From: Thermoplasmata archaeon
GTDB lineage: Archaea; Thermoplasmatota; E2; JACPAO01; JAHFTW01
Direction: 5' to 3'
Assembly: GCA_034667725.1 (NCBI GenBank)
Contig: JAXDQS010000006.1
Location: 28,863-92,862 of the forward strand
DNA: 64,000 nt
Every line of letters begins with the position of its first letter. The first letter of the stretch is position 1. Shown here piece after piece: positions 39,830 through 57,377 of the stretch. The notes beneath the pieces were generated by a model. The model saw only the letters and a program-made list of their open reading frames with translations. It was not told where the DNA came from and did no database searches. A program made the position numbers and the translations under genes.

Positions 39830-40249
39830 TCAGGCGCAGACCTCGACGCCGTCCTCGACCCAGCGCCATTCGACCCGCTCGCCGGCCCGGAGGGGACGCG
39901 CGTCGGCGGCCAGGCCGACCCACTGGGAGTCGATGCAGTAGTTCCAGCCGCCGGTGGCGGTCTCCGTGAACGGCCCGATGCCGCGCACGTAGGCGCCGAG
40001 GGCATGGGGCTCGACCTCGATGGGGAACCGGCCTTGCGCGGCCGCCGCCTCCAGGGCGCCAAGCGGGGTCGCGCCCGTCCCCACGGCGACCGTGCCGTTC
40101 CACCAGATGGCGCCGTCGGGGCTGACGATCGACACCGGGTAGGCGCCCGCCTCGCCCAAGGACGGGTCGGGCTTGGTGGCCAAGAGCAGCGTGGCCCCCG
40201 CGGCCAGCACCGTCGCCGCCGCGAGCGCCAAGAGGAGCCGGTTCGCCAC
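39830..40249 (-). CDS. DUF4430 / transcobalamin C-terminal-like membrane-anchored protein
   Basis: N-terminal TM; TPLGALE...GAYVRGIG...GGWNYCIDSQWVGLAAD...LRAGERVEW. Confidence 0.8.
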   Translation of the reverse strand: MANRLLLALAAATVLAAGATLLLATKPDPSLGEAGAYPVSIVSPDGAIWWNGTVAVGTGATPLGALEAAAAQGRFPIEVEPHALGAYVRGIGPFTETATGGWNYCIDSQWVGLAADARPLRAGERVEWRWVEDGVEVCA

Positions 40250-40259
40250 GCGCACCACA

Positions 40260-40294
40260 GTCAAGCAGGCTTGACAAGCCTCAGCAACAGTTGA
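40260..40294. promoter_or_regulatory. Tandem palindromic operator candidates TCAR-N6-TTGA
   Basis: GTCAAGC-AG-GCTTGAC (40260-40275) and TCAGCAACAGTTGA (40281-40294), 20 bp apart, between divergent genes. Confidence 0.6.
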
Positions 40295-40318
40295 AACACG
40301 AAAAGGCTTGGCCGCGGC

Positions 40319-41152
40319 ATGGAGGAGCTGCTGCGGAGCCTGCGCGACCGCACCGCCACCACCCGCCTGTTGATCCTGGCCACCCTTGGCGCCCGGCCCG
40401 GCTGCACCCTCTCCGAGGTGGCGCAGCGGCTTGGCATCACCGTCCAGGCCGTGTCCGCGCACGCCAAGGAGATGGTCGCCGACGGCCACCTCGAGGTCGC
40501 CGACGGCCGCCACACGCCCACCGCCCGTGGCCGCCAACAGCTCCACGAAGGGGTCCGCGGCCTCCGGGACGCGGTCGCCGCCCTCGCCCAGCCGCTGGAG
40601 GTCATCCAGGTGACAAGCGCCGTCGCCGCCGTCCCCATCGCGGCCGGCGACCAGGTCGGGCTCTGGATGGTCGACGGCGACCTGGAGGCCCGCCCCGCCC
40701 GCGAAGCCCCCAGCCGGGGCCGCGCCCTGGCCGCCGCCAAGCCGGGCGACGAGGTCGTGGTCGGCGAACTGCGCGGCGTCGTCAAGCTGGAGCCCGGCCG
40801 GCTGCGCATCGTCACCGTGCCCGGCCCGGCGGAAGGCGGCGTCGCCCGTGTCGACGCCCCAAGCCTGCTGAAGGCAATAGGGAAGCTCCCGGCCACGGCC
40901 CGCGTCGGCGCGCACGGCACCGGCGCCCGCATCCTCGCCCGCCGCCTGGCCGGCAAAGGCCTGCCGCGCCTCGACTTCGAGTTCGCCGCCGACACGGCCG
41001 CCTTCAACGCGGCGGAGCGCGGCCTCGACGTCCTGCTGCTGGTGACGCGCGACCGGCTCGCCGAGGTGCTGCAGGGCTTCGAGCGCCTGAACGCCGCCAC
41101 GATCCGGCGCGTGGCCGTCGAGGTCACGGAGGCGCCGGAGCGGCATGGATGA
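40319..41152 (+). CDS. Winged-helix transcriptional regulator with C-terminal putative ligand-binding domain
   Basis: TRLLIL...[22 protein letters not shown]...TARG; [15 protein letters not shown]; [11 protein letters not shown]. Confidence 0.8.
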
Positions 41153-42197
41153 GCCCCTCGCGCAGGCGCTCGGCGTCCCCGCGGCGACCGGCGCCGGCAC
41201 CGTCGACCTGGAGGCCCGCGCCGGCGAGGTGGTGCTGCTGCGCGGCGGCAACGGCGCCGGCAAGACCAGCCTGCTCCGCCGGCTCGCGGGCCTGGACGCG
41301 CCGGTGCGGCCGCGCCAGGTCAAGGTCGCGGCCGGCCGCCTCGCGTTCGCGCCCCAGCACGCGCGCGACGGCCTGGTGGGCCTGACCATCGCCGGCGAGT
41401 TCCGTCTCCGGCGCCAGCCGGCCCCCACGGCGCTCGGCCTCGATGCCGGCCGCCCGGTCGCCGAGCTGTCGGCCGGCGAGGCCCGGCGGGTCCTCCTGGC
41501 CACCGTCGTCGGCGCGAACCCGCGCCTCCTGCTGCTGGACGAGCCCGCCGAGGGGCTCGACCGCGCCCGCATGGAGCTGCTGCGCGCGACCGTGCGCGGC
41601 GTGGCGGCCGCGGGCGGGGCCGTGGTCGCGGTGGACCACACGGGCTGCCTTGCGGACCTGGCGACCCGGACCCTCGACCTCGGGTCGCTGCCGGCGCCGC
41701 CCGCGCGTCCGCTGCCGCGCCCGACCGGGCCGCCCGTCGTGGGCCGGTGGGGCCCCGGCCTGCACCTGGTCGCGGGCCCCAACGGCAGCGGCAAGAGCAC
41801 GCTGCTTGCGCGCACGGCCAAGGACCCGGCGGCGCGCTGGCTGCCGTCCGACGCGCGGCTGCTGCTGTCCCAGCCCACGGTCGCGGACGAGCTGCACGGC
41901 GCCGACCCGGCGGTCGCGGGCCTGCTGGTGCCGCCAGCGCTCAGGACCCGCCACCCGCTGACCCTGTCCGGCGGCGAGGCGCAGCGGGTCGCGCTGGCCT
42001 CCACGCTTGGCCGCCCCGCGCGCGCCTACCTGCTGGACGAGCCCGAGGCGTACCTCGATGCCGCCGGCCGCGGCGCCCTGCTCACAGCACTTGCCGCCCG
42101 CCTCGACGCGGCCGCCGCCGTCGTGGTCGCCAGCCACGAGCCGATGTGGGAGCCGCTCGCGCAGGACCGCCTCGACCTGGAGGCGCCGACCGCGTGA
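41145..42197 (+). CDS. ECF-type duplicated ATPase (two shortened NBDs)
   Basis: [21 protein letters not shown] and [21 protein letters not shown]. Confidence 0.82.
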
Positions 42198-43315
42198 GGC
42201 CCATCGCCGCCTGGCTGCTGGTCGGCGCCACCGCCGCCGCCACCGCCGCCGCGTTCCTGCTGCCGCCGGCCGCCGTCGCAGCCCTCGCCGTGGCAGGGTT
42301 CCTGCTGGCGCCGACCTGGGGCATCGTCGTGTTCGCCGCCGTCGCGCTCGCGTTCCAGGCCCTCCTGTTCGGCCTGGTGATCGGCGAGCCGACCTGGACC
42401 TGGGGGCCGGTCGCGCTGCGCGCCGACGGCGCCGTGCGCGGGGCCCAGGCCGCGTTGCGCCTGGTGGCCGCCGTCGCCGTCAACTCCGCCGTGCTGCGGC
42501 GCGTCGGGGTCGCCCGCATCGTCGACGGCCTCCGGCTGCCCCGCCGCGCCACCGCCGTCCTGGCCGCCATCCTGCTGGCGGCGCAGGAGGTCGCGCGCGA
42601 CGCGGCCCGCTTGGTGGACGCCCGCCGCCGCGTCGGCGCGTGGCCGCCCGGCCGGCTGGCGCGCGTGCGCGCCGCCGCCGGGCTGCTGCCCGCCATCCTG
42701 GTGGCGAGCCTGCGCCGCGCCCGCGTGCGCACCGAGGCGATGCGGCTGGCCGGCCTGCGGACGCGGCCGGGCCTGGAGGCCGTCATCGCGCTGGCCGCCG
42801 TCGCGCTCGCGGGCCGCCTCGCGACCACGGGCGTCAACGTCAGCCTCGCCTACGCCGTGGTGTTCCTCGGCGGGGTGCTGTTCGGCGCCCGGGTCGCGGC
42901 CGCCGCCGGCGCCCTCGCCATGCTGCTGTCGGACCTGCTGCTGTCGGGCCTGGCGCCGGCGGCGTTCGTCAACGTCCCCGCCATGGCGGTGCTGGGCGTC
43001 CTCGGCGGCGCGCTCCGGCACCTGGACTGGCAGGGCCGCTCGCCCGCCGACCGGGCGGCGGTGCGCGTGCTCGCGGCCTGCACCGGCTTCGTGGCGACGC
43101 TGGTGTTCTCGGTGGCGGCCGACGTCGCGACCTGGCTCCTGGTGCCGGAGCTGGCGGGCTCGGGCGCGACCTTGGCGGCGCTGCTGGCCAGCGGGCTGCT
43201 GTTCAACCTGGCGCCCGCCGCCGTGAACGCGGCGCTGTTTGCCGCCGCGGTGCCCGCGACGGTGGCGGCCTGGCGGGCCGTGGCTACTTCCAGCGCCGCA
43301 GCGCCCAGCCGGTGA
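42194..43315 (+). CDS. Fused ECF T component + S component
   Basis: T-like ARRR...[24 protein letters not shown] then S-like [17 protein letters not shown]...LLSDLLLSG. Confidence 0.72.
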
Positions 43316-45458
43316 GGCCGACGCTCAGGAGGCTGAGGGCCACCACGGCGACCGCGATGCCGAGGAACGCCGGGCTGCGGACGAAGCCGCCGAGCGACCC
43401 GTCCTGCGCAGCCTCCGCGTCGCGGCCGAGGCTGCTGCGCGCCTCGTTGCCGGACAGCAGCGCGTGCGCGCCCTCGGGGATGCCGACGTCGTCGGCGGCG
43501 TCGCAGGCGTCGCCGGTGCCGTCGAGGTCGCGGTCCTCCTGCTGCGGGTTCGGGCTGCCGACGCAGTTGTCGAGGATGGCGGCGGGGTCGGCGGAGCGCT
43601 CGGGCATCCGGTCGCCGTCGGCGTCCTCGTCGCACAGGTCGCCGCGGCCGTCGCGGTCGAGGTCGCGCTGGTCGCGGTTCGAGACCTGCACGCAGTTGTC
43701 CTGCGCGTCGGCGATGCCGTCGAGGTCGAAGTCGCTGGTGTCCGTCAAGCCGTGCGGCAGCACCGAGGGCGGCGCGTTGGGGTCGCCGGCGCCGCTTGCG
43801 AGCATGCAGGCGTCGCCGCTGCCGTCGCGGTCCTGGTCCGCCTGGTCGAGGTTCTGCGCGCCGGCGCAGGTGTCGGCGTCGTCCGCGACGCCGTCGCCGT
43901 CCATGTCGACGCGGGCCTGGCCGAGCCGGATCTTGACGGGCTTGCAGGTCGAGTCGGTGGCGCCGTTGTCGTCCGTGACCTTCAGGCACACCATGTAGCC
44001 CGGGTTGACGTTGCTGGTGAAGTAGAGGTGGTGCACCTGGGCGCGGCTGTCGCCGCCGGAGCCGTCGCCGTAGTCCCACTGCCAGTCGACGACGTAGCCG
44101 TCGCGGTCGGTGGACTCGTCCAGGGGCCGGATGCCGGTGCCGGCGAGGTTGTACTCGTACTCGAACGCGGCGTCGGGGGGACGGTTGTTGACCACGACGT
44201 CCTTGCACATCGGGCCGAGGGTGCGCACGTAGCCGTAGCGCGAGATGACGATGGTCTCGCAGACGCGGTAGGTGCCGGCCTTGGAGTACCAGTGCAGCGG
44301 GGAGCGCTCGAAGCCCCAGGCGCCGTCGCCGAAGGTCCAGTTGCGGTAGACGGACAGGCCGTCGAGCGGCGGGAAGTCGATGTGGTCGGTGTACTGCACG
44401 AAGTCCAGCGTCAGGTTGTCCGGCGAGGTCTCGACGAACTTGTACGTCCAGTTCATGCTCGGCTCGGGGATGGTGAGGCCGTTGAACGCGAAGATGAAGG
44501 TGTTGGGGCCGCCGTCCAGCGGGGTCGGGCCGCCGCCGGGGTAGGTGCACTCGGGCCGGCCGCCGCCGCACTTGCCGAGCGACCAGACCTGGGCCGAGAT
44601 GAGGTCGAGCGCGTTCATGGCGTCGGTGTGGTTGTCGCCGGCGCCGTAGTAGATGTTGAACTCGCGGGTGTTGCCGGAGCCCAGGCCGCCGAAGTTGAAG
44701 TCGAAGGCGGCGCCGTGGTCGCGGGGGCCGACGTCGATGACGGGGGGCGCGAACGGCGGGCCGACCGCCCAGCCGCCCCACGTGGTCATGGGGCAGGAGG
44801 AGGAGAGCGGCGTCGAGACGATGAAGCCGCTGGTGAAGCCGTTGGTGCAGGAGTACTGCAGCACGCTCGGGACCGGGAGGATGGTGTCGATGGTCGAGTA
44901 CTCCTGGAACGGCGTGGGCTCGACGTCCCAGTCCATGGTGCGGCGGTAGGTGACGTTGTCCATGGGGTCGGGGCCGATGTTCTCCAGCGTGACCTTGACC
45001 TGGTAGAGGCGGTCGGTGCGCGTGTCCGGGTGGAAGTCATGCGTGACCTTGAGGTCGCCGATCTGCGTGACGGAGAGGGCGGTGGTGGCCGTGCTGGAGA
45101 AGCTGATGAGGGTCACGCCCATGATGCCGCCCGAGTCGAGGCTGGCGCCGCCTTGGACGGTCGGCGCGGCGCCGATGAGCCCGTAGGCCGCGCCCCAGGC
45201 CTCGCACCGGCAGCCGGCGGCGGTGGCGTCGCAGCCCGTGGGCATGTAGCGCACGCCGACGGTGAAGGTGCCCGAGCAGGAGGGGCCGCTGCTGCCGTAG
45301 TTGAGGTGGCCTTGGTCGTTGACGCCGAGCATGACGACGGTGTTGTCGATGAGGGCGCCGCCCTCGGCCTCGGGCGTCAGCGCGAACGCGACGGCGGCCA
45401 AGGCCAGCAGCGAGGCTGCGGCGGCCAGGGGAATCATGGGGCGGGGGATTGCGGGCAT
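43284..45458 (-). CDS. Surface protein: conserved N-terminal domain, 2 PKD domains, TSP3 repeats, C-terminal TM
   Basis: Signal peptide; GCRCEAWG...YRRTMDWD; WTFGDG, WDYGDG; DxDxDGxGDACD repeats; TM then RRWK. Confidence 0.88.
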   Translation of the reverse strand: MPAIPRPMIPLAAAASLLALAAVAFALTPEAEGGALIDNTVVMLGVNDQGHLNYGSSGPSCSGTFTVGVRYMPTGCDATAAGCRCEAWGAAYGLIGAAPTVQGGASLDSGGIMGVTLISFSSTATTALSVTQIGDLKVTHDFHPDTRTDRLYQVKVTLENIGPDPMDNVTYRRTMDWDVEPTPFQEYSTIDTILPVPSVLQYSCTNGFTSGFIVSTPLSSSCPMTTWGGWAVGPPFAPPVIDVGPRDHGAAFDFNFGGLGSGNTREFNIYYGAGDNHTDAMNALDLISAQVWSLGKCGGGRPECTYPGGGPTPLDGGPNTFIFAFNGLTIPEPSMNWTYKFVETSPDNLTLDFVQYTDHIDFPPLDGLSVYRNWTFGDGAWGFERSPLHWYSKAGTYRVCETIVISRYGYVRTLGPMCKDVVVNNRPPDAAFEYEYNLAGTGIRPLDESTDRDGYVVDWQWDYGDGSGGDSRAQVHHLYFTSNVNPGYMVCLKVTDDNGATDSTCKPVKIRLGQARVDMDGDGVADDADTCAGAQNLDQADQDRDGSGDACMLASGAGDPNAPPSVLPHGLTDTSDFDLDGIADAQDNCVQVSNRDQRDLDRDGRGDLCDEDADGDRMPERSADPAAILDNCVGSPNPQQEDRDLDGTGDACDAADDVGIPEGAHALLSGNEARSSLGRDAEAAQDGSLGGFVRSPAFLGIAVAVVALSLLSVGLTGWALRRWK

Positions 45459-45568
45459 CGACGACCAACCTCCGGTCCTCCGACCGGAAACCACCCAGGG
45501 ACCGAAAGGTGCCCAGTTAAGCCTTGTCGGGCGGAGCCGGCCCGCGGCTGCGGGTTGCGCCCGGCCGC

Positions 45569-47689
45569 TCACCGTTTCCGCAGCCAGGCCGCGGACCCGG
45601 CCGCCCCCGCGAGGCCCAGCGTCGCCCAGAAGGCGATGAGGCCGGCGAGGCCGCTGGCGCCGGCCGGCGCGGGGGCGGCCGTGGGCGCCAGGTAAGGCTC
45701 CAGGGAGCGCGGCGCGGCCAGGGCGCGCGCCTCGGCCGGCAGGGCGCAGGCGTCGCCCAGGCCGTCGCCGTCGCGGTCCTGCTGGTCCAGGTTCGGCACC
45801 AGCGGGCAGTTGTCCGCGAAGCCGGCGGACGGGATGCCGTCGCCGTCGGGGTCGTCGTCGCAGGCATCGAGCAGGCCGTCGCGGTCGCGGTCGAGGCCGT
45901 CGCACGGGTCCGGCGCGGCCGAGGGCGCCACCAGGAGGGGCGCCTCGTTGAGGGGCGGGCGGGGCGGCAGCACGTCGACGGCGGGGTCGCAGGCGTCGCC
46001 CGTGAGGTCGGCGTCGAGGTCCACCTGGGCGGCGTCCGCGGTGCCGGCGCACAGGTCGGCGAAGTCGGCGATGCCGTCCTGGTCGGAGTCGCGGGCGATG
46101 TTGTCCACCAGCACGACGACGGTGCGCGCGGCGGCGCCGCCGTAGGGGTCGTGGACGGTGACGACGAACTCGTGGGGGCCGAGCTGGCCAGGGCCGGGGC
46201 GCCAGGCGAGCCGGCCGGCCGCGATCACGGCGCCCTCCGGCAGCCGCTCGGTCGTCCAGGTCAAGGCGTCGTCGTCGCGGTCGTAGGCCTGCAACGGGAG
46301 ATTCAACAAGGTGCCGACCACCAGGTGGCGGCCCGCGATGAAGCGCAGCGTCGGCGGGAAGTTGAACGGCCCCGCGACCCAGGCCTCCGCGCACGAGCGC
46401 GTCGCGGCGCCGTCGTCGTCGGTCGCCGTCAGGCAGACCGGGACGCGGCCGCCGCGCGGGAAGTCGTGGTCGACCGACGCGCCCGTGGCGGTGGTGCCGT
46501 CGGGCAGCTCCCACGCCCACGCCACGATGGCGCCGTCCAGGTCCGCGCCGGTCGCGGCCAGGCGGGTCGTGGCAGCGGTGAGGTTGGCGGCGGCGAAGCT
46601 GGCGGGCGGCGGCCGGTTCTGGATGGTGAGCGGGACGCAGGCGGTCCAGCTGCGCCAGCCGACGCCGGACAGGACGTCCTGGTGGGCGCAGGCGCGCACC
46701 GGGCCGTCGTCGAAGTAGGCGTGCGCCGTGGCCAGGCCGGCGCCGGTGGCGCCGTCGCCGAACTCCCAGCGCGCCGCGCGCTCGGCGGCGCCGGCGGGCA
46801 GCGGGTTGCGCAACCGGAGCTGCACCGGCTCGACGGTGTACGGCGCGGCCGGGGCCTCGACGTCGGGCAGGGCGCAGCCGAGGCCGCCTAGGCCGTCGAC
46901 GGCAAGGAGATGGACGGCCGAGCCGTTCGACTGGGCCAGCACCCAGGCCTGCGCGCCGACGGCGACCAGCAGGGCGCCGGCGGTGGCGCCGTCCGGGGCG
47001 CGACCGTACCAGAAGCGCACGCTGGCCTCGTCGCCGGGGCCGAGGCACCCGAGCGCCGCCTCCAGCGCGCCGCCGAGGTCGCCGGGGCCGCTGGTGCCGG
47101 AGGCGGCCGGCGCCATCGGGCTTGCGGGATCCGGGCTGGCAGCACCGTCGGGCGACATGCCGGCCAAGAGCGGCGGCGACGGCGCCGCGGCGGCGAGGGT
47201 CACGGTCTCCTCTCCGGGCGAAGGGCCGAGGTCGAAGTCGGCGACGCGCCGGTAATGGACGCCCGCCACGGCGGCGGGGCCGGGGTTCGTGATGGTGACG
47301 TCGAGGGTGAACAGGCCGGGCAGGGCGGCCGCCTGGAAGCGGTGCGCGACCCGCAGGCCCGCCGCGTCCACCACGGACACGGCGCCGCCGGAGCCATTGG
47401 TGAACGAGACGACCGGGACGGTGGCGGCGCCGTCGCGGGTGGCCGCGTGGCCGCCGGCGTGCGCAACACCCCAGCCCTCGCACGGGCACGGGCCGGCGAA
47501 CGCGGGCTCGCCGTCCGCGCCCGCGAGGGCAGCGACCGTGCCGTCCGGATGGACCGTGAGGACCGCGTCGCCCGACTCCAGCGTGGCGCCGTGGGCGAAC
47601 GCCGCCAGCGCCAGCAGCGCGGCCAGCAAGCCAAACGCGCCTGCAAGCCACGTGACGTGGCGAGGTGCGGATGACGTGGCAGGCGCCAT
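45569..47689 (-). CDS. Paralogous surface protein: N-terminal domain, PKD, Ig-like, TSP3 repeats, TM
   Basis: CPCEGWG...YRRVADFD; WEFGDG; DNCPLVPNLDQQDRDGDGLGDAC; TM then RKR. Confidence 0.85.
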   Translation of the reverse strand: MAPATSSAPRHVTWLAGAFGLLAALLALAAFAHGATLESGDAVLTVHPDGTVAALAGADGEPAFAGPCPCEGWGVAHAGGHAATRDGAATVPVVSFTNGSGGAVSVVDAAGLRVAHRFQAAALPGLFTLDVTITNPGPAAVAGVHYRRVADFDLGPSPGEETVTLAAAAPSPPLLAGMSPDGAASPDPASPMAPAASGTSGPGDLGGALEAALGCLGPGDEASVRFWYGRAPDGATAGALLVAVGAQAWVLAQSNGSAVHLLAVDGLGGLGCALPDVEAPAAPYTVEPVQLRLRNPLPAGAAERAARWEFGDGATGAGLATAHAYFDDGPVRACAHQDVLSGVGWRSWTACVPLTIQNRPPPASFAAANLTAATTRLAATGADLDGAIVAWAWELPDGTTATGASVDHDFPRGGRVPVCLTATDDDGAATRSCAEAWVAGPFNFPPTLRFIAGRHLVVGTLLNLPLQAYDRDDDALTWTTERLPEGAVIAAGRLAWRPGPGQLGPHEFVVTVHDPYGGAAARTVVVLVDNIARDSDQDGIADFADLCAGTADAAQVDLDADLTGDACDPAVDVLPPRPPLNEAPLLVAPSAAPDPCDGLDRDRDGLLDACDDDPDGDGIPSAGFADNCPLVPNLDQQDRDGDGLGDACALPAEARALAAPRSLEPYLAPTAAPAPAGASGLAGLIAFWATLGLAGAAGSAAWLRKR

Positions 47690-47890
47690 GGGGGACCCCG
47701 GCTTCCGCTGGAGCGCAGGCAATTCCCTCCAGGCAAATATAAGCATTGCCTGTGGACGCGAACTGGCGGCCGCGAGTTGCGCGGGGGTGGGTTCAGAAAC
47801 GCCGAAGACCGGGCCTGGCCTGCAGCTTGAGCATGGGCCGACGGGCGGTGTCCAGCACGGGGCATCGCTTCGGATTCACGCGTTTTCGCC

Positions 47891-49939
47891 CTACCGTCCC
47901 CACCCAAGCAGCCGCCGGCGCGCGGCGTAGAGCACGCCGCCGAGCGCCGCCGCGGTGCCGGCCGTCACGGCCGCGCCGACGGCGACGGCCGGCGGGCCGG
48001 CCTCCGCCGACGCCTCGACCTGGAGGCGGGTGCGTTCGCGCGGGCCGGCGCGCGGGGTCGCCGGGTCGGGGTCGCAGGCGTCGCCGACGCCGTCGAGGTC
48101 GGCGTCGAGCTGCTCCAGGTTGGGCCGTTGGAGGCAGTTGTCGAGGGTGTCGCCCACGGTGTCGCCGTCGGCGTCCGGGTCGCATCCGTCGCGCACGCCG
48201 TCGCCGTCCGCGTCGGGCCCCGCCGGGCAGCCGCCGCCCGCGTCGGCGGGCCGGCGGCCCTCGCGGCGGCCGGGCGGGTCGGGCCGGCCGCCGGGCGGGC
48301 CGGGCGGGTCGTCGCAGGCGTCGCCGACGCCGTCGCGGTCGCGGTCGTCCTGGTCCTGGTTGGCGACGCCGGGGCAGTTGTCGGCGTCGTCCTGGACGCC
48401 GTCGCGGTCGTCGTCGTGGCGGCTCTCGGTCGGCGGGATGGTGACGCGCAGCCAGACGACGCATTGCTCGGCCTGCTGCCCTTGGTCGTCTTGGCCGAGG
48501 ATGACGAGGAGGTGAAGGCCGAGCTCGTCGCCGGTCGGGCGCCAGGTGAGGTTCATGGTCGCCTCGAGGCCGAGCGGGGACGAGGGGCTGACGCCACCGG
48601 CCGGGAAGAAGCGGGCGCCCGCTTCGAGTCCCATGCCGGGCGGCAGGCCGAGGTGCAAGAGCTCGACCGGGCGGCCGTTGCGGGAGGCCAGCGTGAGGCC
48701 GGCGGCCCACTCGTCGTTGACCGGGAGGCGCAGCTCGGCGCCGCACATCAGCGGCGGCAAGAAGTCGGGCGGGCCGTCGGGCTCCACGAGCTGGATGAAG
48801 AAATCGAGCGGCGTCTCGGCGGGGCCGGCGCTGAGGACGACCTGGACCGAGTAGAACGTCGGCCCGCTGGGGTAGACCATGGCGCCGGTGGTGTTCCACT
48901 CGACGACCCCGGTCCACGGGTCCACCGTCAGGTTCCACGGCGCCTCGGGGCTGCCGGGCGGGTGGTACGTGGTCTCGTTGCCGTAGACCAGCCAGGGCTG
49001 CGCGCGCCACTGGGACGCGAGCTGGTAACGGATGGGGTCGCCGTCGGGGTCGAGCGCCGGGATGACGAAGCGGCACACGGACTCGACGGGGCATTGCACG
49101 ATGGGCGGCAACAGCGCGCGCGGCGGGCGGTCGAGGCTGGGCAGGTCGAAGCGCGCCTCCAGGTGCATGCCCTGCTCGCCGTTGTTGGCGTGGCCGGACT
49201 CCTCGCTCAGGCGGCAGCAGGCGTCCCAGCGGAGCCCATAGCGCGGCGACGGGTAGGTGTAGGACGACGGGAAGCCGGTCGGGAAGTGGTCCTCGGAGCA
49301 GCAGGTGGACGACGAGGTGGGCGTGCTGCTGGAGGAGTGGTGCGCGGTGGCCGGCTCGCCGTGGTCCGACGACGCCGGCGGCGGGCTTGGGCCTGCGCTG
49401 CTGGCGGTGAAGCAGTCCGGGCACGGGGGCGGAGGCGGCGGGGGCGGAGGGGGAGGCGGCGGGGACGGCGGAGGCGGGGGCGGGCAGTGCGGGTGGCACG
49501 GCGGAGGCGGCGGGGGCGGCGGGACCGTCCAGGTGACTGACTCCGAGTTGGCGGGGCCCGCCAGGATGCGGCCGAGGAACCAGTCGGCGGCGTGGTTGAC
49601 CGTGACCACCTCCAGCGCGATCGGGACACGGTCGCGGCGCCAGGTGTAGGTCCGGTTGCCGTCGAACGTGGTCTCCTCCCACGGCACGACGAACCGGCCG
49701 TCGTGGGCGCCCGGCGGCAGCAGCACCTTCTGGCCCGGCGCCGTCACGTTGGGGAAGTAGCCGAGCCGGTAGGCCTGCCAGCCCTCGATGCGGGCCTCCT
49801 GGCCGGCGCTCATCCCAAGGACGGGGTCGACGTGGAGCGTCCCGCCCCGGAAATGCGTCCCCTCCGCCGGCGCCGTCGCCAGCAGGACCACCGCCAATGC
49901 AAGCGCGGGAAGGGCCAGGCCCCATGCACGTGCGACCAC
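47891..49939 (-). CDS. THFRGG (Sib-like) surface protein with poly-Pro insertion, TSP3 repeats, TM
   Basis: THFRGGTL, CCRL, DPDGD, YSVQV...PLDFFI; DNCPGVANQDQDDRDRDGVGDACD. Confidence 0.85.
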   Translation of the reverse strand: MVARAWGLALPALALAVVLLATAPAEGTHFRGGTLHVDPVLGMSAGQEARIEGWQAYRLGYFPNVTAPGQKVLLPPGAHDGRFVVPWEETTFDGNRTYTWRRDRVPIALEVVTVNHAADWFLGRILAGPANSESVTWTVPPPPPPPPCHPHCPPPPPPSPPPPPPPPPPPPPCPDCFTASSAGPSPPPASSDHGEPATAHHSSSSTPTSSSTCCSEDHFPTGFPSSYTYPSPRYGLRWDACCRLSEESGHANNGEQGMHLEARFDLPSLDRPPRALLPPIVQCPVESVCRFVIPALDPDGDPIRYQLASQWRAQPWLVYGNETTYHPPGSPEAPWNLTVDPWTGVVEWNTTGAMVYPSGPTFYSVQVVLSAGPAETPLDFFIQLVEPDGPPDFLPPLMCGAELRLPVNDEWAAGLTLASRNGRPVELLHLGLPPGMGLEAGARFFPAGGVSPSSPLGLEATMNLTWRPTGDELGLHLLVILGQDDQGQQAEQCVVWLRVTIPPTESRHDDDRDGVQDDADNCPGVANQDQDDRDRDGVGDACDDPPGPPGGRPDPPGRREGRRPADAGGGCPAGPDADGDGVRDGCDPDADGDTVGDTLDNCLQRPNLEQLDADLDGVGDACDPDPATPRAGPRERTRLQVEASAEAGPPAVAVGAAVTAGTAAALGGVLYAARRRLLGWGR

Positions 49940-50019
49940 GACCCACCCATCCGCCTGGATTTCATCAACCGTGGCAGAAGGTTCGGTCGGCGCCGATCCC
50001 GCGACGGCTGGCGGACCCT

Positions 50020-50056
50020 ACCCTTTATCCGGAGCCGGCCTTGCCCGCCAGGTCCG
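50020..50056 (+). promoter_or_regulatory. carA promoter, near-identical to the carB upstream region
   Basis: ACCCTTTATCCGGAGCCGGCCTTGCCCGCCAGGTCC. Confidence 0.75.
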
Positions 50057-50061
50057 ACGCG

Positions 50062-51273
50062 ATGGGACATCCCCCCACCCCAAAAACCGCCGCCCTTGAC
50101 CGCCCTGCGTTCCTGGTGCTGGAGGACGGCACCGTGGTGGAGGGGCGTGCGTTCGGGGCCGCGAAGACCGTCTACGGCGAGCTGGTCTTCAACACCGGCA
50201 TGACGGGCTACCAGGAGTCGCTCACCGACCCGTCGTACCACGGCCAGGTCCTGATGTTCACCTACCCGATGGTGGGCAACTACGGCGTCAACGCGGACGA
50301 CTGGGAGTCCGACCGGGTGTGGCCGCGCGCCGTCGTGGTGCGGGAGTGGTGCCGCGAGCCCAGCCACCGCAAGTCCACCATGACCTTGGATGCCTGGCTC
50401 GTCCAGCAGGGGATCCCCGGCATCGAGGCGGTCGACACCCGCGCGCTCACCATCAAGGTGCGCGAGAAGGGCTGCCTGCGCTGCTTCGTCACGCATGACC
50501 CCAAGGAGGTCCCCGCCCTGCAGCAGAAAGTCAAGTCGATGCCCTCGGTCGAGGCCGAGAACCTCGCTGGCGAGGCCTCGGTCCAGAAGGTCCACGCCTA
50601 CGGCCGCAACGACGCCGGCCGCCTGGTGGACGGCTCCCCGACCGACAAGGCGGCGCCCACGGTCGCGGTCATCGACACCGGCATCAAGCGCAACATCCTG
50701 CGGAACCTCGCGCGCCGCTTCAACGTCCTGCATTGCCCCTGGAACGTCTCGGCCGAGGAGGTGCGCCGTCGCGGCGCCGACTGCTTGTTCATCGCCAACG
50801 GCCCTGGCGACCCGGCCCATCCCGACATCGCGCGCTTCACGCTGCCCACCATCCGTGCCGTCAGCGAGCGGGTGCCCACGTTCGGGATCTGCTACGGCAA
50901 CCAGCTGGTCTCGCTGGCCTGGGGCGCCAAGACGCAGAAGATGAAGTTCGGCCACCGCGGCGCCAACATCCCGACCCGCGACGAGTTCAGCGGCGTGGTG
51001 CGCATCACCAGCCAGAACCACGGCTTCCACGTCGACGCCCAGAGTGTTGCCGGCACCGGCCTGGTGGTGTGGGAGCGTTGCCCCAACGACGGCGTCGTCG
51101 AGGCGGTCCGCCACGAGACGCTGCCGATCTTCACGATGCAGTACCACCCCGAGGCCAGCCCCGGCCCGTGGGACTCCAGCCACTTCTTCGACCAGTTCCT
51201 CGCCATGGTCGAGCAGTGCAAGGCCGGCAAGTGGACGCCCGGCGCGTTCCCCAAGGTCCCGGGCGCCCATTAG
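50062..51273 (+). CDS. carA: Carbamoyl-phosphate synthase small subunit
   Basis: LVLEDG, GELVFNTGMTGYQE, NGPGDP, GICYGNQ, SQNH, QYHPEASPGP. Confidence 0.97.
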   Translation: MGHPPTPKTAALDRPAFLVLEDGTVVEGRAFGAAKTVYGELVFNTGMTGYQESLTDPSYHGQVLMFTYPMVGNYGVNADDWESDRVWPRAVVVREWCREPSHRKSTMTLDAWLVQQGIPGIEAVDTRALTIKVREKGCLRCFVTHDPKEVPALQQKVKSMPSVEAENLAGEASVQKVHAYGRNDAGRLVDGSPTDKAAPTVAVIDTGIKRNILRNLARRFNVLHCPWNVSAEEVRRRGADCLFIANGPGDPAHPDIARFTLPTIRAVSERVPTFGICYGNQLVSLAWGAKTQKMKFGHRGANIPTRDEFSGVVRITSQNHGFHVDAQSVAGTGLVVWERCPNDGVVEAVRHETLPIFTMQYHPEASPGPWDSSHFFDQFLAMVEQCKAGKWTPGAFPKVPGAH

Positions 51274-51323
51274 GCCTGGCCGCTTTCCTCGACGTTTTCG
51301 CCCCAGGCCCGGTCTGGCCGTCC

Positions 51324-51743
51324 ATGCAGCAGGTCCCCTGGCTGGCGGCGATGCTGGCCGGCCTCGGCGTGGCGCTCGCCCTCGGCGGCGCCGCCTTGGT
51401 CGTCGTCAACGTGCCGGACGCAAGCTCGCCGGTCCCCATCGTCACCGGCCTCGCCCTAGTGGCCGCGGGCGGGGTCGCCGCATGGGCCGCCCTCGCCGGC
51501 CAACGCGCGCCGCTCCTGGTGGCGGCCGCGGTCGCGGCGGCGGTCGCCGTCGTGCACGCCACCGGCGCGGTCGGCCTCCTCGTGGCCCCGGCCGCCGTGC
51601 TCTTGGCCGTCGGCGCGTTCGCGCTGCCGCGCGCGCCTGGAGACGATTTCAAAACTCCAAGAAGGCCTGCGGCGATTTCCGGCCATCGCAGTCCAAGGAA
51701 GGGGGTCCGCCAGCGGGCTGGAGGCCCGCCAAGGACCCCCTGA
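51324..51743 (+). CDS. Small 4-TM membrane protein whose C-terminus is read from a MITE
   Basis: MQQVPWLAAMLAG... four hydrophobic helices, then a hydrophilic tail starting at the element boundary. Confidence 0.6.
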   Translation: MQQVPWLAAMLAGLGVALALGGAALVVVNVPDASSPVPIVTGLALVAAGGVAAWAALAGQRAPLLVAAAVAAAVAVVHATGAVGLLVAPAAVLLAVGAFALPRAPGDDFKTPRRPAAISGHRSPRKGVRQRAGGPPRTP

Positions 51744-51911
51744 CGCCGGAATGTGTGGCCGGAAACCGCCCCGAAGGGCGCGCCGCTTTTGCGGCGGATT
51801 GCGGCGTCAGGCCGGTCTTGCCGTGCCCCCAGCACGGCAAGACCGGCCTTCCTTGCACTCCTTGCAAACCGGCGCGCGCAGGCCACTTAGAGTTTTGAAA
51901 ATCGTCTCTAG
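51637..51911. mobile_element. MITE-like element (~275 bp) with ~30-bp terminal inverted repeats
   Basis: CTGGAGACGATTTCAAAACTCCAAGAAGGCCTGC versus reverse complement of right end CTAGAGACGATTTTCAAAACTCTAAGTGGCCTGC; perfect internal stem AGGCCGGTCTTGCCGTGC/GCACGGCAAGACCGGCCT. Confidence 0.8.
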
Positions 51912-53398
51912 CGGGCGCGGCGCCGGCGCCGGGCCAGGATGAGCAGCAGGCCGGAGGCCGCCAGCGCCCCGAGCCCAAGCAGCAGCGGGCCGCCGGGGCC
52001 GGCGTCGCCGCCGGCCCGGCGCACCGGCTGGGGCGCGCCGGCCGCGGCCACGGGCTCGCGCGCGTCCGCGCTGCGCGCCGCGGGCACGACGGCGCCGGCG
52101 TCGTCTTGCCCCGCGGGCTCCGTCGCCACGGCCGGCGGCGGCGTTTCGTCCGCAGGCTCGCCCGGCTCGACCTGGTCGCGCGGCGGCTCAGGCGACGGGC
52201 GCGGGTCTTGGCTCTCGACGGGCGGCGGGCCGCAGCCGGTGTTGCCGAGCGGGAGGGTCTCGAGCGCGAACGCCAGGCGGGCGGTGGCGCCGTCGCTGAA
52301 GGTCAGGATGAGCTGCACGGCATAGGAGCGGCCGGGCGGGTAGGCGTGGGTGGCGTCCTTGGTGGTCGCGGTGGCGCCGTCGCCGAGCTCCCACCACCAC
52401 GCCACGATGGTGACGGGCAGCGGCGGGACGCTGCGGTCCTCGAACCGGTAGAGCACGCTGCCGCAGCCGGCAGCGATTGGCACGACCTGGAGCGCAAGGA
52501 CGGGCTCGGGCCGCGGGTCGAGCCGGATCAAGAAGTCGAGCGGGACGTTGGTCTTGTTGTCCACCACCATGACCTGCATCGAGTAGTAGGTGCGCGGCGA
52601 GGTCGCCGAGAGCGCGGCGCCGCGGGTGTCCCAGGCCACGATGCCGGTGGCGGCGTCGATGGTGGCTGCGTTGAGGGCGGCGGGCGGGCCGGGCTGCACG
52701 AACGGGTCGTAGCCGGGGACGTAGCCGGCGGCCTCGGCGGAGGTGGACAGGCGGTAGCGGGGCGCCTCGCCGTCCGGGTCGGTGGCGACGATGGGGAAGG
52801 TGCACACGGTCCCGATGTGGCACACCTGCAGCACGATCGGCGTGGCCTCCGGCGAGTGGTTCGCGTTCAGCAGGTCCACCTTGGTCTCGAGGCGATACCA
52901 GCCTTCGGGGTTGTTCATGTGGCCGTCCACGAAGTTGAGGCGGTCGCCGGTGCTCCAGGAGACGGTGTACGGCGTGCCCCAGTTGTTCGGGGTGCGGTAG
53001 GTGTGCGTGAGCGGGCCCGTCGTGCCGGGGGCGACGATGCGCACCACCATGTTGTCGGCCGCCACGTCCACCTCCTCGACCAGCATGTCGAACCGCGAGG
53101 TGCCGTCGCCCCAGGCGATGTTGTCGCAGCACGACCAGCCCGGGATGATGTCGCCCACCGTCGCCGACGCCGCGGTCGGGTAGTAGAACGTGGTTCGGTA
53201 GACCAGTTGTCCCGTGAGCGAGATTCGGGTCAGGTCGTCGAGCATCGCGGTGGGCCCGGTCGCCTCGACGCGGTGCCACTGCAGCGTGCCGCCCCGGTAG
53301 TGGTTCGCCTCTGCGTCCGGCAGCAGGGCCACCACGGCGACGGCGCCGCACAGCGCCAGGCCCGTCCAGGCCAGGCTTCTCCAAGCAGGCGTCTGCAT
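51908..53398 (-). CDS. NHYRGG (Sib-like) surface protein with PKD domain and TM anchor
   Basis: NHYRGGTLQW, YRTTFY, NHSP, DPDG, YYSMQVMV...PLDFLI; WELGDG; TM then RRRRRAR. Confidence 0.87.
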   Translation of the reverse strand: MQTPAWRSLAWTGLALCGAVAVVALLPDAEANHYRGGTLQWHRVEATGPTAMLDDLTRISLTGQLVYRTTFYYPTAASATVGDIIPGWSCCDNIAWGDGTSRFDMLVEEVDVAADNMVVRIVAPGTTGPLTHTYRTPNNWGTPYTVSWSTGDRLNFVDGHMNNPEGWYRLETKVDLLNANHSPEATPIVLQVCHIGTVCTFPIVATDPDGEAPRYRLSTSAEAAGYVPGYDPFVQPGPPAALNAATIDAATGIVAWDTRGAALSATSPRTYYSMQVMVVDNKTNVPLDFLIRLDPRPEPVLALQVVPIAAGCGSVLYRFEDRSVPPLPVTIVAWWWELGDGATATTKDATHAYPPGRSYAVQLILTFSDGATARLAFALETLPLGNTGCGPPPVESQDPRPSPEPPRDQVEPGEPADETPPPAVATEPAGQDDAGAVVPAARSADAREPVAAAGAPQPVRRAGGDAGPGGPLLLGLGALAASGLLLILARRRRRAR

Positions 53399-53449
53399 TC
53401 CGACCGCACGGCCGCTCGTTTGCGGGCGCATAAGGCTTTCCAGCAGCCT

Positions 53450-55186
53450 CTAGCGGTCGCGCCGGCGCCGGCTCGCCGCCAGGGCGCCTGCCCCGCCGAG
53501 CACCACCAAGGCGCACATCGCCAGCAGCGGCAGCAGCTCGCCGGCGGCCCGGCGCACGTCGGCCGGGTCGCCGAGCTTGGCGCGGTCGCCGCCGAGGGGG
53601 GTCGCCGAGCGGAAGCCGCCGTCGGCGCCCTCGGCCGCCTCGCCGGCGCAGAGCGCGTCGCGCGGGCACAGGTCGGCGACGTTCGGGCGGCCGTCGCCGT
53701 CCCAGTCGCCGTCGCAGGCGTCGCCGCGCCCGTCGCGGTCCAGGTCCTCCTGGCCGGCGTCGGGCAGCCCGGGGCAGGCGTCGTCGTCGTTGCCGACGCC
53801 GTCGCCGTCGAGGTCGGCGTCGCACTCGTCGCCGCCGCCGTCGTGGTCGCGGTCGTCCTGGCCGGCGTTGGTGACGCCGGGGCAGTTGTCGAGGCGGTCC
53901 TGGACGCCGTCCGAGTCGCGGTCCGCGTCCCAGCCCTCGGGGTCGGGCGCCACGTCGTCGCCCGGCGGCTCGGCCTCGGGCGGCACGTCGGTGGAGACCA
54001 CCGGGGGAATGGGGCAGGGCCGGTCGGGGAGCGTGATCTTCTTCCAGGTGGTGCCCGGCTCGCCGTTGCTGTCGGTGACCAGGAGCGTGACGTTGTAGGT
54101 GCCGGGACCAGGGTAGGCGTGGACGCCGGCGGGGACGTTGTCGGTGCTGGCGTCGCCGAAGTCCCAGTACCAGGCCGCGATGGTGGTGCCGGCGGGGGCG
54201 GCGGTGCCGATGAGGCTGAGGTCCTTGAAGCGGACGTCGTAGACGCCGCAGCCGCCGAGGTCCTCCAGCTCCAGCGCGGGGCGGGGCGCGACGTTGGCGC
54301 GGGCGATGCGGATGAAGAAGTCCACCGGCGTCTTGGTCTCGCCGTCCTCCACCATCACCTGCATCGAGTAGTAGGTGTAGGCGCCGGCGGCGCGGGTCAG
54401 GCCGGCCAGGTCCCAGGTCACCCAGCCGGTGTTGGGGTCCAAGACGGCGGCGAAGGTCGAGAACGGCGGGCCGGGGGAGATCCAGCCGGCGGCGCCGATG
54501 GCCTCCAGGGAGGTCGCCTCGCGGAAGCGGATGGCGTCGCCGTCGGGGTCGGCCGCCACGATGCGGAAGCGGCACACGGCGACCCCGGTGCACATCTGGA
54601 TGGGGACCAGCTTGGCCACGGGCGAGTGGTTGGGCGTGAGCAGGGTCACGCTGGTCTCGAGGCGCCAGGCGTCGTCGGGGTTGTTGATGTGGCCGGCCAT
54701 CCCGCTCAAGCGCGCGCTCGAGGTCCAGTAGACGATGTAGGAGGTGTTGGTGAGGTAGCCCGACACTGCGGTCGGGGCCGGGAAGTCATGCACCAGGTCG
54801 TCGGTGGTGCCGGGCGCCACGAACCGGACCTGCACGACGTCCAGCGTCGAGTCCACCGACAGCACCAGCATCTCGGCGTTGGAGGCGGGGGTCGAGTCGC
54901 CCCAGGTGATGCTGGCGACCTCGGGGGTGCCGCCCGTGTTCAGCAGCTTGGCGCCCACCACGGCCGGCGAGTAGTATGTGGCGCGGAACGCGACCTCGCC
55001 GGTGAAGCCGATGCGGGCCAGCTCCTGGGGGCCGACCACGGGCAGCTCGTCCGGGACCTTGTACCACTCCAGGGCGCCGCCGCGGAAGTGGCTGGCCTCG
55101 GCCTCGCCGTGGACGATCGCGACGGCCGCCAAGCCAGCCGCGGCCAGCAGCAGCCCTCGCCACGCCCACAGCCCGGCCGACCCCAT
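53450..55186 (-). CDS. SHFRGG (Sib-like) surface protein with PKD, TSP3 repeats and TM anchor
   Basis: SHFRGGALEW, HINN, NHSP, DPDGD, YYSMQVMV...PVDFFI; WDFGD; TSP3 repeats. Confidence 0.87.
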   Translation of the reverse strand: MGSAGLWAWRGLLLAAAGLAAVAIVHGEAEASHFRGGALEWYKVPDELPVVGPQELARIGFTGEVAFRATYYSPAVVGAKLLNTGGTPEVASITWGDSTPASNAEMLVLSVDSTLDVVQVRFVAPGTTDDLVHDFPAPTAVSGYLTNTSYIVYWTSSARLSGMAGHINNPDDAWRLETSVTLLTPNHSPVAKLVPIQMCTGVAVCRFRIVAADPDGDAIRFREATSLEAIGAAGWISPGPPFSTFAAVLDPNTGWVTWDLAGLTRAAGAYTYYSMQVMVEDGETKTPVDFFIRIARANVAPRPALELEDLGGCGVYDVRFKDLSLIGTAAPAGTTIAAWYWDFGDASTDNVPAGVHAYPGPGTYNVTLLVTDSNGEPGTTWKKITLPDRPCPIPPVVSTDVPPEAEPPGDDVAPDPEGWDADRDSDGVQDRLDNCPGVTNAGQDDRDHDGGGDECDADLDGDGVGNDDDACPGLPDAGQEDLDRDGRGDACDGDWDGDGRPNVADLCPRDALCAGEAAEGADGGFRSATPLGGDRAKLGDPADVRRAAGELLPLLAMCALVVLGGAGALAASRRRRDR

Positions 55187-55243
55187 ACGGGTGGCAGCGG
55201 GCTTCGCGCTACTTGATGGTTTGCCTGGGGAACCCGAGGGGCC

Positions 55244-57175
55244 CTAGCGCCGGCGTGCGAACCACGCCAGCCAGCCTGCGGAACCCAGCAGTCCGCCTGC
55301 GCCGGCCACGACCAGCGGCAGGACGCCGGAGGACGGCTCGGGGACCGCCCGGCCCTGCGGCGGGGCCTCGCGGAGCGCGGGCCCGGCGCCGAGGGCGGGG
55401 TCGCAGGCGTCGCCGACGCCGTCCCCGTCGCCGTCCTCCTGGCCGGGGTCCGGCACCAGGGGGCAGCGGTCGAGGAACGCGCCGGCGGGGCCGAGGTTCG
55501 CGACCCCGTCGCCGTCGAGGTCGGGGTCGCAGGCGTCGCCGACGCCGTCGCCGTCGAGGTCGGTGGGCTCGGGGTCGGCCGTCAGCGGGCAGCTGTCCAC
55601 CGTGTCGGGCCGGCCGTCGAGGTCGCGGTCGGGCGGGGTGGCGGCGCGCGGCCCGGCGTCCGTCGGCTCGGCGCCGAAGCGGCCGGAATCGCCGTCGCAG
55701 GCGTCCCCGAGGCCGTCGAGGTCGCGGTCGGACTGGCCGCCGTTGGCGATGGCGGGGCAGTTGTCGGCGTCGTCCTGGACGCCGTCGCGGTCTTCGTCGC
55801 GGGCCGCGGGGCCGCCCTCGTCCGCCGCGGGCGGGGCCGTGCTGGGCGGGGCGCTGGAGGAGGACGAGGTCGTGCCGCCCGTGCCGGTGGCGGCGGGAGG
55901 AGGGGGCGCGGGCTCGCCGGCGCCGCACGGGGCCGGCATGGAGAACACGGCCGCCGCGCCGGCGTTGTCGTGGCCTTCCACGGCCGCCATGCCTTGGTCG
56001 CCGACCGCCAGCAGGCCGTCCGCCATCGCGAGCGCGCGGCCGAAGCCGTGGTCCGCCTCGGGGCCGAGGGTCGTGTAGCTGCGCGCGAGCGTCACGTTGG
56101 CCCCGCTGGCGTCCAGGACGTAGAGATAGGCGTGGCCGTCCGGGCCCGGGGTGGTGCTGGAGGTTCCGAAGTCGCGCCCCATCGCGCCGACGGCGAGGCA
56201 GGGCCCGTCCAGCGCGACGGCGGTGCCGAAGCGGACGCCGGCGCCGCCGGGCTCCACCAGGTCGGCCGCCTTCGCCCAGCCGCCGGCCGCGCCGTGGTGC
56301 CAGACGCTGGCCGCGCCCTTGGCGACGGCGCCGGCGAGGTCGGCCATCTCGGAGGCCACGACGGCGAGGTCGCCGTCGAGCGCGACCGCCTCGCCCGCGT
56401 AGCCGTAGCCCGCGCCGGGCGCCAGCACGGCAACCTCGCTCCAGGCGCCGCCGCTGCGCTCGAACAGGTGCGCGCGGGCCGTGCCGGGCGCGCCCACCAG
56501 CAGGCGGTCGCCGTCCAGGTCGAGGGCGAGGCCGAAGCCGGCGCCCGTCTGGGGGTCGGCGGCGCCGAGGCGGGCCTGGGGCTTCCAGGCGCCGGCCGGG
56601 TCGCGGACGTAGACGTGGACGGCGCCCGCGTCCTCGATGGCGGGCAGGAGCGGCGACAGCGGGTCGGGCTGGGCGGAGCGCCAGGCGCCGACGGCGAGGG
56701 TGCCGCCGTCGAGGTCGATGGCGACGCCGTAGTTGCCGTAGCCGGGCGGGACGGCGGGCGGGTCGGGGTCAGCCAAGGTGGCGGCCACCGACCAGACGCC
56801 GCTGGCGGGGTCGCGCTCCAGCACATGGGCCCGGTAGGCTTGGCTCTCGCCGACGGCCGCGCGGAAGCCGTCGAGGGCCACCGCCTGCTCGCCGAACAGG
56901 CCGCCGTAGGCGGGGACGGGCGCGTGCAGCGTCTGGGTCCAGGACCACTTCGACGACGACCTGGTGAACGCCTGGACGGTGCCGGGGCAGCCGGCCACGG
57001 TCGCGCTGCAGATGCTGCTCACCAGGAGCGTGCCGTTGCCGAGGGCAAGGCCGCGCCCGAACAGCTCGCCGCCGAAGGGCGCGCCGGAGACCACGGGGGC
57101 AGGGGCCATCGGGGTGGCCGCCACCTGGAGGGCCAGCGCAAGCCCAAGGATGACGAGCACGGCCCTCCCATGCAT
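55244..57175 (-). CDS. Seven-bladed FG-GAP beta-propeller surface protein with TSP3 repeats and TM anchor
   Basis: Seven blades of the type FGxxxALDGxxxxVGA (e.g. FGLALDLDGDRLLVGAPG); TSP3 repeats; TM then RRR. Confidence 0.88.
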   Translation of the reverse strand: MHGRAVLVILGLALALQVAATPMAPAPVVSGAPFGGELFGRGLALGNGTLLVSSICSATVAGCPGTVQAFTRSSSKWSWTQTLHAPVPAYGGLFGEQAVALDGFRAAVGESQAYRAHVLERDPASGVWSVAATLADPDPPAVPPGYGNYGVAIDLDGGTLAVGAWRSAQPDPLSPLLPAIEDAGAVHVYVRDPAGAWKPQARLGAADPQTGAGFGLALDLDGDRLLVGAPGTARAHLFERSGGAWSEVAVLAPGAGYGYAGEAVALDGDLAVVASEMADLAGAVAKGAASVWHHGAAGGWAKAADLVEPGGAGVRFGTAVALDGPCLAVGAMGRDFGTSSTTPGPDGHAYLYVLDASGANVTLARSYTTLGPEADHGFGRALAMADGLLAVGDQGMAAVEGHDNAGAAAVFSMPAPCGAGEPAPPPPAATGTGGTTSSSSSAPPSTAPPAADEGGPAARDEDRDGVQDDADNCPAIANGGQSDRDLDGLGDACDGDSGRFGAEPTDAGPRAATPPDRDLDGRPDTVDSCPLTADPEPTDLDGDGVGDACDPDLDGDGVANLGPAGAFLDRCPLVPDPGQEDGDGDGVGDACDPALGAGPALREAPPQGRAVPEPSSGVLPLVVAGAGGLLGSAGWLAWFARRR

Positions 57176-57271
57176 GGGCCGCGCCAGGAAGGGCTCTCCT
57201 ACAAGACGGTTGGCAGGCGGGACCTGAGCGCCGAACCGGGAACATGGCCGCGGGGTCCGTGGCCCGGGGGC

Positions 57272-57377
57272 ACCCTTTATCCGGAGGCGGACTTGCCCGC
57301 CAGGTCCCAACTTCATGGTGACACCCCCCAACCCCCACGAGGCCGCCCCGAGCGCCGTTGTCGTGGAGGTGGCGTGA
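57272..57377 (+). promoter_or_regulatory. carB upstream region: duplicate of the carA promoter plus a 20-codon uORF (57315-57377) and SD
   Basis: ACCCTTTATCCGGAGGCGGACTTGCCCGCCAGGTCC; MVTPPNPHEAAPSAVVVEVA-stop overlapping the carB ATG (TGATG); GGAGGTGG. Confidence 0.75.

Follow-up and report, generated by a model that had tools for sequence, protein, structure and literature searches.

Dictyostelium SibA-E are single-pass surface proteins, called integrin-beta-like for their vWA domain, glycine-rich helix and NPxY tail (the accessible parts of PMC12686525, PMC9197732 and bioRxiv 10.1101/2020.04.29.069435). The integrin alpha chain is a single-pass protein with a seven-blade FG-GAP-type propeller, and integrin-type propellers have already been reported from bacteria (seven-blade; PMC3192720) and archaea (bioRxiv 10.1101/2020.04.29.069435), both likewise as given in the accessible parts of the text. 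The window analyzed here, a stretch of 64,000 nucleotides from a Thermoplasmata archaeon (contig JAXDQS010000006.1, positions 28,863 to 92,862), contains six minus-strand genes, G1-G6, for stalked surface proteins. The HFRGG heads of G3, G4, and G5 are, by profile comparison, homologous to the N-terminal domain of Sib, but the proteins have a stalk of thrombospondin type 3 (TSP3) repeats and PKD domains in place of the vWA domain and talin-binding NPxY tail. G6 has a seven-blade propeller on a single-pass protein as in integrin alpha, but its blades are of the FG-GAP_2 type (PF14312) without the calcium loop, and leg domains and GFFKR are missing.

Other likenesses concern stalks, folds, and anchors. 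The MtsC proteins (NF047638) of myxobacteria, in which mts genes are clustered, are TSP3-repeat surface proteins with a C-terminal membrane tail like the six; they match five of the six at 62-99 bits (cut-off 350; no match for G4), in the repeats only, and have other heads. The C.CE.WG heads of G1 and G2 have the predicted fold of the N-terminal domains of dextran dextrinase, glucodextranase, and cellobiose/chitobiose phosphorylase (Z 13-14, root-mean-square deviation [rmsd] 3.0-3.3, ~200-213 residues aligned), but stand alone with 6-12% identity and no catalytic barrel, and sugar binding or catalysis is putative. Thermoplasmatota proteins named 'PKD domain-containing' or 'thrombospondin type 3 repeat-containing' share the architecture, but here there are five HFRGG copies and occupied slots at carAB. 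Compared with PGF-CTERM substrates of archaeosortase A, the genome has the enzyme (ArtA passes TIGR04125), but the six proteins match no CTERM model and lack PGF before the transmembrane (TM) helix; a relaxed signal is possible.

The six genes probably encode independent, membrane-anchored, adhesin- or lectin-like surface proteins whose heads were shuffled long ago, and they have collected at a two-slot locus of variable content. The architecture is already known. The novelty lies in how the Sib-related head divides into domains and has expanded in archaea, in the fold of the unnamed head, and in a two-slot locus carrying a duplicated promoter. The literature searched, which was short of most subscription papers, held no description of these heads or this locus. 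An archaeal 'proto-integrin' reading is removed, the Sib-related part being a widespread prokaryotic module and not the integrin-beta-like part. What is gained is two uncharacterized head domains with confident models, one without a Pfam family, and a tractable handle on the Sib N-terminal domain. The features of the locus are as follows (aa, amino acids; Ig, immunoglobulin-like domain; HTH, helix-turn-helix; ORF, open reading frame; MITE, miniature inverted-repeat transposable element).

40319..43315, plus strand: left flank, MarR-type HTH regulator, ABC ATPase, and ECF membrane component; convergent with G1.
43284..45458, minus strand: G1, 724 aa, signal, beta-supersandwich (C.CE.WG) head, two PKD, TSP3, TM and basic tail (Pfam, model).
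45569..47689, minus strand: G2, 706 aa, degenerate supersandwich head, PKD, He_PIG-like Ig, TSP3, TM.
47891..49939, minus strand: G3, 682 aa, SIBA-E_N-type head with Pro/Ser-rich insert, cadherin-like Ig, TSP3, TM; divergent from carA.
50020..50081, plus strand: promoter-like motif with the start of the carA coding sequence (its first codons), from which the copy before carB stems (84% over 64 nt to 57272-57335).
50062..51273, plus strand: carA, carbamoyl-phosphate synthase small chain (Pfam CPSase_sm_chain and GATase).
51324..51636, plus strand: small hydrophobic ORF, frame continuing into the inverted-repeat element; matches no family.
51637..51911, no strand: MITE-like element with 35-nt terminal inverted repeats, ending at the G4 stop; 79% over 272 nt to a second copy.
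51908..53398, minus strand: G4, 496 aa, SIBA-E_N-type head, cadherin-like Ig, PKD, Pro-rich linker, TM; without TSP3.
53450..55186, minus strand: G5, 578 aa, SIBA-E_N head, cadherin-like Ig, PKD, TSP3, TM.
55244..57175, minus strand: G6, 643 aa, seven-blade FG-GAP_2 propeller directly on TSP3, TM; divergent from carB.
57272..57335, plus strand: duplicated carA promoter/5' relic in front of carB.
57377..60682, plus strand: carB, carbamoyl-phosphate synthase large chain, right flank (named by sequence and position).

All six ORFs were intact, with a GC content at third codon positions of 0.95-0.99, the same as in carA and carB. Each had N- and C-terminal hydrophobic segments and a basic tail of 3-9 residues, as read from hydropathy and not from a signal-peptide predictor. 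A preliminary description, made from the sequence alone, had proposed six minus-strand surface-protein genes on shared TSP3/PKD stalks. The genes were confirmed in number, strand, and terminal segments; the shared stalk held for TSP_3 in 5/6 (not G4) and PKD in 4/6 (not G3 or G6) by Pfam, which found FG-GAP_2 in G6, and not every gene had both stalk domains. The idea of a single block failed: carA splits the genes 3 + 3, and the small ORF and the MITE-like element also lie between G3 and G4. Being interrupted by plus-strand carA and these two features, and ending at carB, the cluster cannot be one operon; G6, G5, and G4 are co-oriented with gaps of ~50-60 bp.

The Sib-related head was identified with the Pfam family SIBA-E_N (PF24907). 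G5 scored 20.2 bits, below the cut-off of 28.1, but a paralogue in the same genome (G000:C3) and a family relative scored 29.7 and 47.6, and the family was matched by all 13 close relatives. G3 and G4 had no match alone and share the head at E ≤ 1e-21; G4 and G5 are 41% identical over 399 aa. The resemblance to the Sib N-terminus, which the preliminary description had noted, was thus borne out as homology to this family; it rests on the Pfam profile, and no Sib sequence was found among the best 150 of 1,487 matches or 40 long ones. The G5 head was modeled from 107 sequences (pLDDT 92.0) in two parts: residues 1-150 correspond to SIBA-E_N, and residues 155-264 match cadherin EC domains with a middling score (Z 9.1, rmsd 2.5, 94 aligned). 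All five motifs listed for the HFRGG group were present in G3, G4, and G5, but DPDG and YSxQV...PxDF belong to the cadherin-like Ig behind the N-terminal domain. The Sib Ig models PF24908 and PF24910 had no match in the window and weak matches in 3/13 and 2/13 relatives. Fold searches of the G5 head listed no integrin or vWA chain, an absence that excludes nothing, with residues 1-150 barely covered; solved structures searched by sequence yielded no useful match to the G1, G5, or G6 head. The Sib-related module here is not the part that makes Sib integrin-beta-like.

The SIBA-E_N module is widespread. In the protein library, 1,487 clusters carried it at E ≤ 0.001; named holders include Calditrichia, Chloroflexia, Frankiaceae, Acidobacteriota, and Taibaiella, on type 9 secretion system (T9SS), HYR, and other scaffolds, and the expectation that the domain also occurs in bacteria was correct, the scaffolds being unrelated. 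Within the phylum it is patchy (9/401 genomes by Pfam). Five copies occur in this genome versus one match in each of 9/37 relatives (doubtful in one case). A tree built from 159 heads placed all five copies in a 26-tip clade (SH-like support 0.93), 23 tips of which have TSP3, PKD, or a TM tail, and the archaeal heads had long branches; the tree heads were the best 150 matches of a profile built from these archaeal heads and include no Sib or amoebozoan sequence. A weak HFRGG match in the congener G004 (E 1e-16) was rejected as an IgGFc-binding/Kelch protein without SIBA-E_N. Among 107 sequences, 93-100% keep H2, R4, R37, R128, H135, N137, and N138, and 86% have a Cys-Cys pair; in 113 of 148 SIBA-E_N proteins, the second residue behind a predicted A-x-A cut is His. 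These features suggest a putative ligand site; vicinal disulfides can contact sugar rings (PMC12102755, accessible part). The G3 head carries, at window positions 49300-49530, a Pro-rich and then Ser/Thr-rich insert of ~90 residues within the SIBA-E_N domain.

The G1 and G2 heads were described earlier as two further paralogues. Both motifs of the C.CE.WG group were found in the two proteins, but relationship to the HFRGG heads was rejected (hhalign probability 0.1%): judged by sequence profiles, the two head families are unrelated. The C.CE.WG head has no Pfam family. The G1 head model (pLDDT 87.9) is a predicted beta-supersandwich (Foldseek E 4.5e-4; best Z 14.4, rmsd 3.0, 207 aligned), with dextran dextrinase and cellobiose phosphorylase N-domains at Z 14.4 and 13.7 and 6-12% identity. 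The domain occurs on 41 longer proteins, three from this genome and the named ones myxobacterial, with autotransporter, Rhs, and cadherin-like repeats among the scaffolds. The family is 40-50% identical across domains of life, and E52, H106, R139, D142, D144, E152, and D213 are kept in >90% of the 41 sequences. In the ESM Atlas, the nearest clusters are bacterial and Promethearchaeota ones without names; of the closest three, two consist mostly of Promethearchaeota (Asgard) proteins, which is a lead only.

The G6 head matched FG-GAP_2 with 76.4 bits, and seven repeats were visible in the alignment, confirming the complete seven-blade propeller of the preliminary description; TSP3 begins 47 residues after it, with no Ig-like leg domains between. 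The integrin calcium loop, D/E-h-D/N-x-D/N-G-h-x-D/E (pattern from the accessible part of bioRxiv 10.1101/2020.04.29.069435), had no match in G6, and GFFKR was absent. The six proteins showed no Pfam vWA match, no DxSxS, and no unassigned stretch long enough for the domain, so that both earlier caveats, on vWA and on the calcium loops, were right. No cytoplasmic NPxY was found in the six, the only NPxY-like match being extracellular, in G1. Propellers related to G6 were found in 9/37 other genomes of the order and in 0/12 of the genus at E ≤ 1e-10. A complex prediction with the G6 propeller and the G5 head scored 0.00 twice (mark 0.32), which is evidence neither for nor against pairing.

The combination of heads did not recur in other genomes. 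Outside HFRGG neighborhoods (15, of 3.4-20.6 kb, 9 under 12 kb, the doubtful G004 locus left out) had a propeller in 0/15 and a C.CE.WG gene in 1/15, a comparison limited by short contigs and by most of the 1,487 SIBA-E_N clusters being without genomic context. The second HFRGG pair of this genome has neither a propeller nor a C.CE.WG gene nearby. In L040:4923-11476 (G022, another genus), an HFRGG gene adjoins a C.CE.WG gene, the only recurrence of two head types found.

The six genes are the densest patch of a larger family. A motif scan of the genome gave 31 ORFs, one of which was dropped for want of Pfam support, leaving 27 TSP3-stalk genes and 3 without TSP3 that share their heads (~30 in total, ~24 besides the six), so the proposed six-gene set is real as a patch but only part of the whole. 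Profiles counted 5 HFRGG and 10 C.CE.WG genes, and the stalk also carries IgGFc-binding (3), Kelch, BNR, and subtilase heads. When 30 genes were placed at random, a 14-kb stretch with six of them arose in 1 of 20,000 placements, but clustering is general in the family (19/30 genes with a family neighbor within 6 kb versus 4.1 expected). The nearest stalk carries the same head type for only 9 of 20 stalks, the G1 stalk being closest to that of an HFRGG protein (38% over 203 aa). Mid-stalk identity among paralogues is ≤58% in the best matches, so the shuffling of heads and stalks is old, and recent recombination between them was ruled out by the low identities. The earlier notion of mix-and-match heads therefore stands over evolutionary time, as ancient mosaicism. 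Four stalk-family genes end in a cytoplasmic winged-HTH (L199:560-3943, L199:3970-5574, L200:503-2482, and L106:4968-8636), and their products are possible one-component surface sensors. L196:527-2557 and L204:556-2655 encode stalk proteins that share another unnamed head, seen by eye, of no Pfam head family.

The carAB locus was compared across the genus, with carA found in 10/12 congeners. Eight of these ten loci had no stalk gene in the stretch examined, with carA and carB 0-637 bp apart, and an ECF gene lies directly before carA in five congeners. Two stalk genes precede carA in G004, with a third between carA and carB; G005 has one at each position. A G2 orthologue is at the same site in both (SH-aLRT 83 with the two site genes); the remaining site heads are neither HFRGG nor FG-GAP, and one in G004 bears a 'choice-of-anchor L' label, as we presume. 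Slot content thus turns over between species. A promoter-like motif precedes carA in 9/10 congener loci, and its duplication with the first codons before carB was found in this genome, G004, and G005, and in 0/8 empty-site loci. The carA motif is kept across the genus and is possibly a regulator site. Scanning metagenomes with carA retrieved distant loci only (≤49% identity).

In the proposed model, a signal peptide would export each product as a separate type-I surface protein, and the C-terminal helix and basic stop-transfer tail would hold it, with archaeosortase A possibly cutting and lipid-anchoring it. TSP3 repeats bind Ca2+ and, with PKD/Ig domains, extend such proteins; here they would form a spacer raising one N-terminal head above the surface. 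The heads would be mobile modules common with bacteria, namely SIBA-E_N plus cadherin-like Ig (G3-G5), supersandwich (G1, G2), and FG-GAP_2 propeller (G6), each most likely binding extracellular polymers (glycans or others) carried by particles or cells, and the set would be an attachment or recognition repertoire, not a fixed complex. The cluster would have grown at one slot preceding carA and another separating it from carB, and the duplicated carA promoter in the second slot would keep carB expressed. Duplicated promoter and variable cargo together are a clear footprint of the way in which surface genes accumulate within a housekeeping operon in this uncultured soil archaeon. The model is favored by the family size, the decoupling of heads and stalks, the slot variability, the second promoter copy, and the conserved SIBA-E_N residues described above, as well as by the occurrence of both head families on unrelated bacterial scaffolds (autotransporter, T9SS, Rhs, HYR), the supersandwich being the fold of N-terminal domains of glycoside hydrolases and phosphorylases, and the resemblance of the TSP3 regions to the myxobacterial cohesion protein MtsC.

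Several observations weigh against the adhesin-like repertoire. Ligand binding and adhesion by the heads are putative. YidC and amine oxidases have the supersandwich as well, so the shared fold shows no function, and some heads may bind nothing, because the Cys-Cys pair is gone from G4 and G5 and the G2 head has degenerated (28 of 66 conserved columns differ, versus 2 for G1). G000, G004, and G005 grouped together in 2% of bootstrap trees of carA + carB; as the three occupied genomes are not a clade, a single slot origin needs later losses or exchange. Clustering, and the co-orientation and short gaps of G6-G5-G4, make co-expression possible.

A bolder extension, which we regard as doubtful, is that SIBA-E_N would be an unrecognized prokaryotic glycan- or anion-recognition domain (His2, three Arg, His-x-Asn-Asn, vicinal Cys-Cys), with dictyostelid Sib sharing it or taking it from prokaryotes. 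The archaeal lineage would deploy it and the unnamed supersandwich as a diversifying receptor repertoire from the two-slot carA locus, the duplicated promoter allowing cargo exchange without silencing carB. If so, the ligand of the Sib N-terminus would be reached most simply through the small archaeal heads.

A surface foraging apparatus, with heads capturing or cutting soil polymers for uptake, the supersandwiches as mutarotase- or lyase-type enzymes and SIBA-E_N binding substrate or metal, appears unlikely. The subtilase and BNR heads elsewhere in the genome, the conserved polar residues and cross-domain identity of the supersandwich, and the His at position 2 after the predicted A-x-A cut would suit it, and a single HFRGG gene adjoins HTH-regulator and/or ECF homologues in 4/8 family relatives. 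The same genes flank G1, which points to inherited gene order. However, no catalytic barrel accompanies the supersandwich, whose best structural matches are at the low identity given above, and the ECF link is convergent, not operonic, with five congeners keeping ECF-carA without a stalk gene.

Homophilic cell-cell recognition or cohesion, as by the myxobacterial Mts thrombospondin-repeat proteins, with species-specific heads as self-identifiers, has a smaller chance still. The cadherin-like second domain, the TSP3 similarity to MtsC, the long branches of the archaeal HFRGG heads, and the species-dependent slot content agree with it, but the MtsC scores lie far under the cut-off and in repeats only, cadherin Z values of 8-9 can reflect the common Ig arrangement, and there was no sign of recent head exchange.

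An integrin-like alpha/beta receptor of the G6 propeller and an HFRGG head (G5, G4, or G3), the hetero-complex of the preliminary description, is highly improbable: G6, G5, and G4 are adjacent and co-oriented, the propeller is seven-bladed and FG-GAP-type, and the homology to the Sib N-terminus is true, but vWA and its metal-ion-dependent adhesion site (MIDAS), NPxY tail, GFFKR, and calcium loop are absent, tails of 3-9 residues cannot couple to the cytoskeleton, and the gene pairing is not conserved, the propeller being missing from the 15 outside HFRGG loci compared, from the surroundings of this genome's own second pair, and from all 12 congeners, although one of these (G010) has an HFRGG gene.

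The genome assembly measures 2.32 Mb (~71% GC, 90% complete), and proteins and loci of close relatives carry Thermoplasmatota labels. Contigs of a metagenome run, maybe the source and thus not independent, match 42283-48093, 48573-51705, 51859-55548, and 55753-57451 without differences; a second metagenome run held only small parts of the region. The runs containing it are soil metagenomes, with no RNA run among those listed. The second MITE-like copy is at G000:C10:230937-231164, and short matches at the ends of contigs C1, C4, C7, C8, and C9 suggest that further copies may have broken the assembly there. An integron-like cassette repeat was looked for between the genes and none was seen; the 20 largest repeat families shown were coding repeats. 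Left of the cluster, positions 39833-43315 hold a weakly DUF4430-like gene (39833-40258, E 0.037), the MarR-type regulator with DUF7839, the ABC ATPase, and the ECF component, possibly a vitamin uptake module (B12 is a guess). A DUF1353 gene lies 3' of carB at 61096-61638, with no homologue in the relatives' carAB loci examined, and GC drops to 0.67 past 60 kb of the window.

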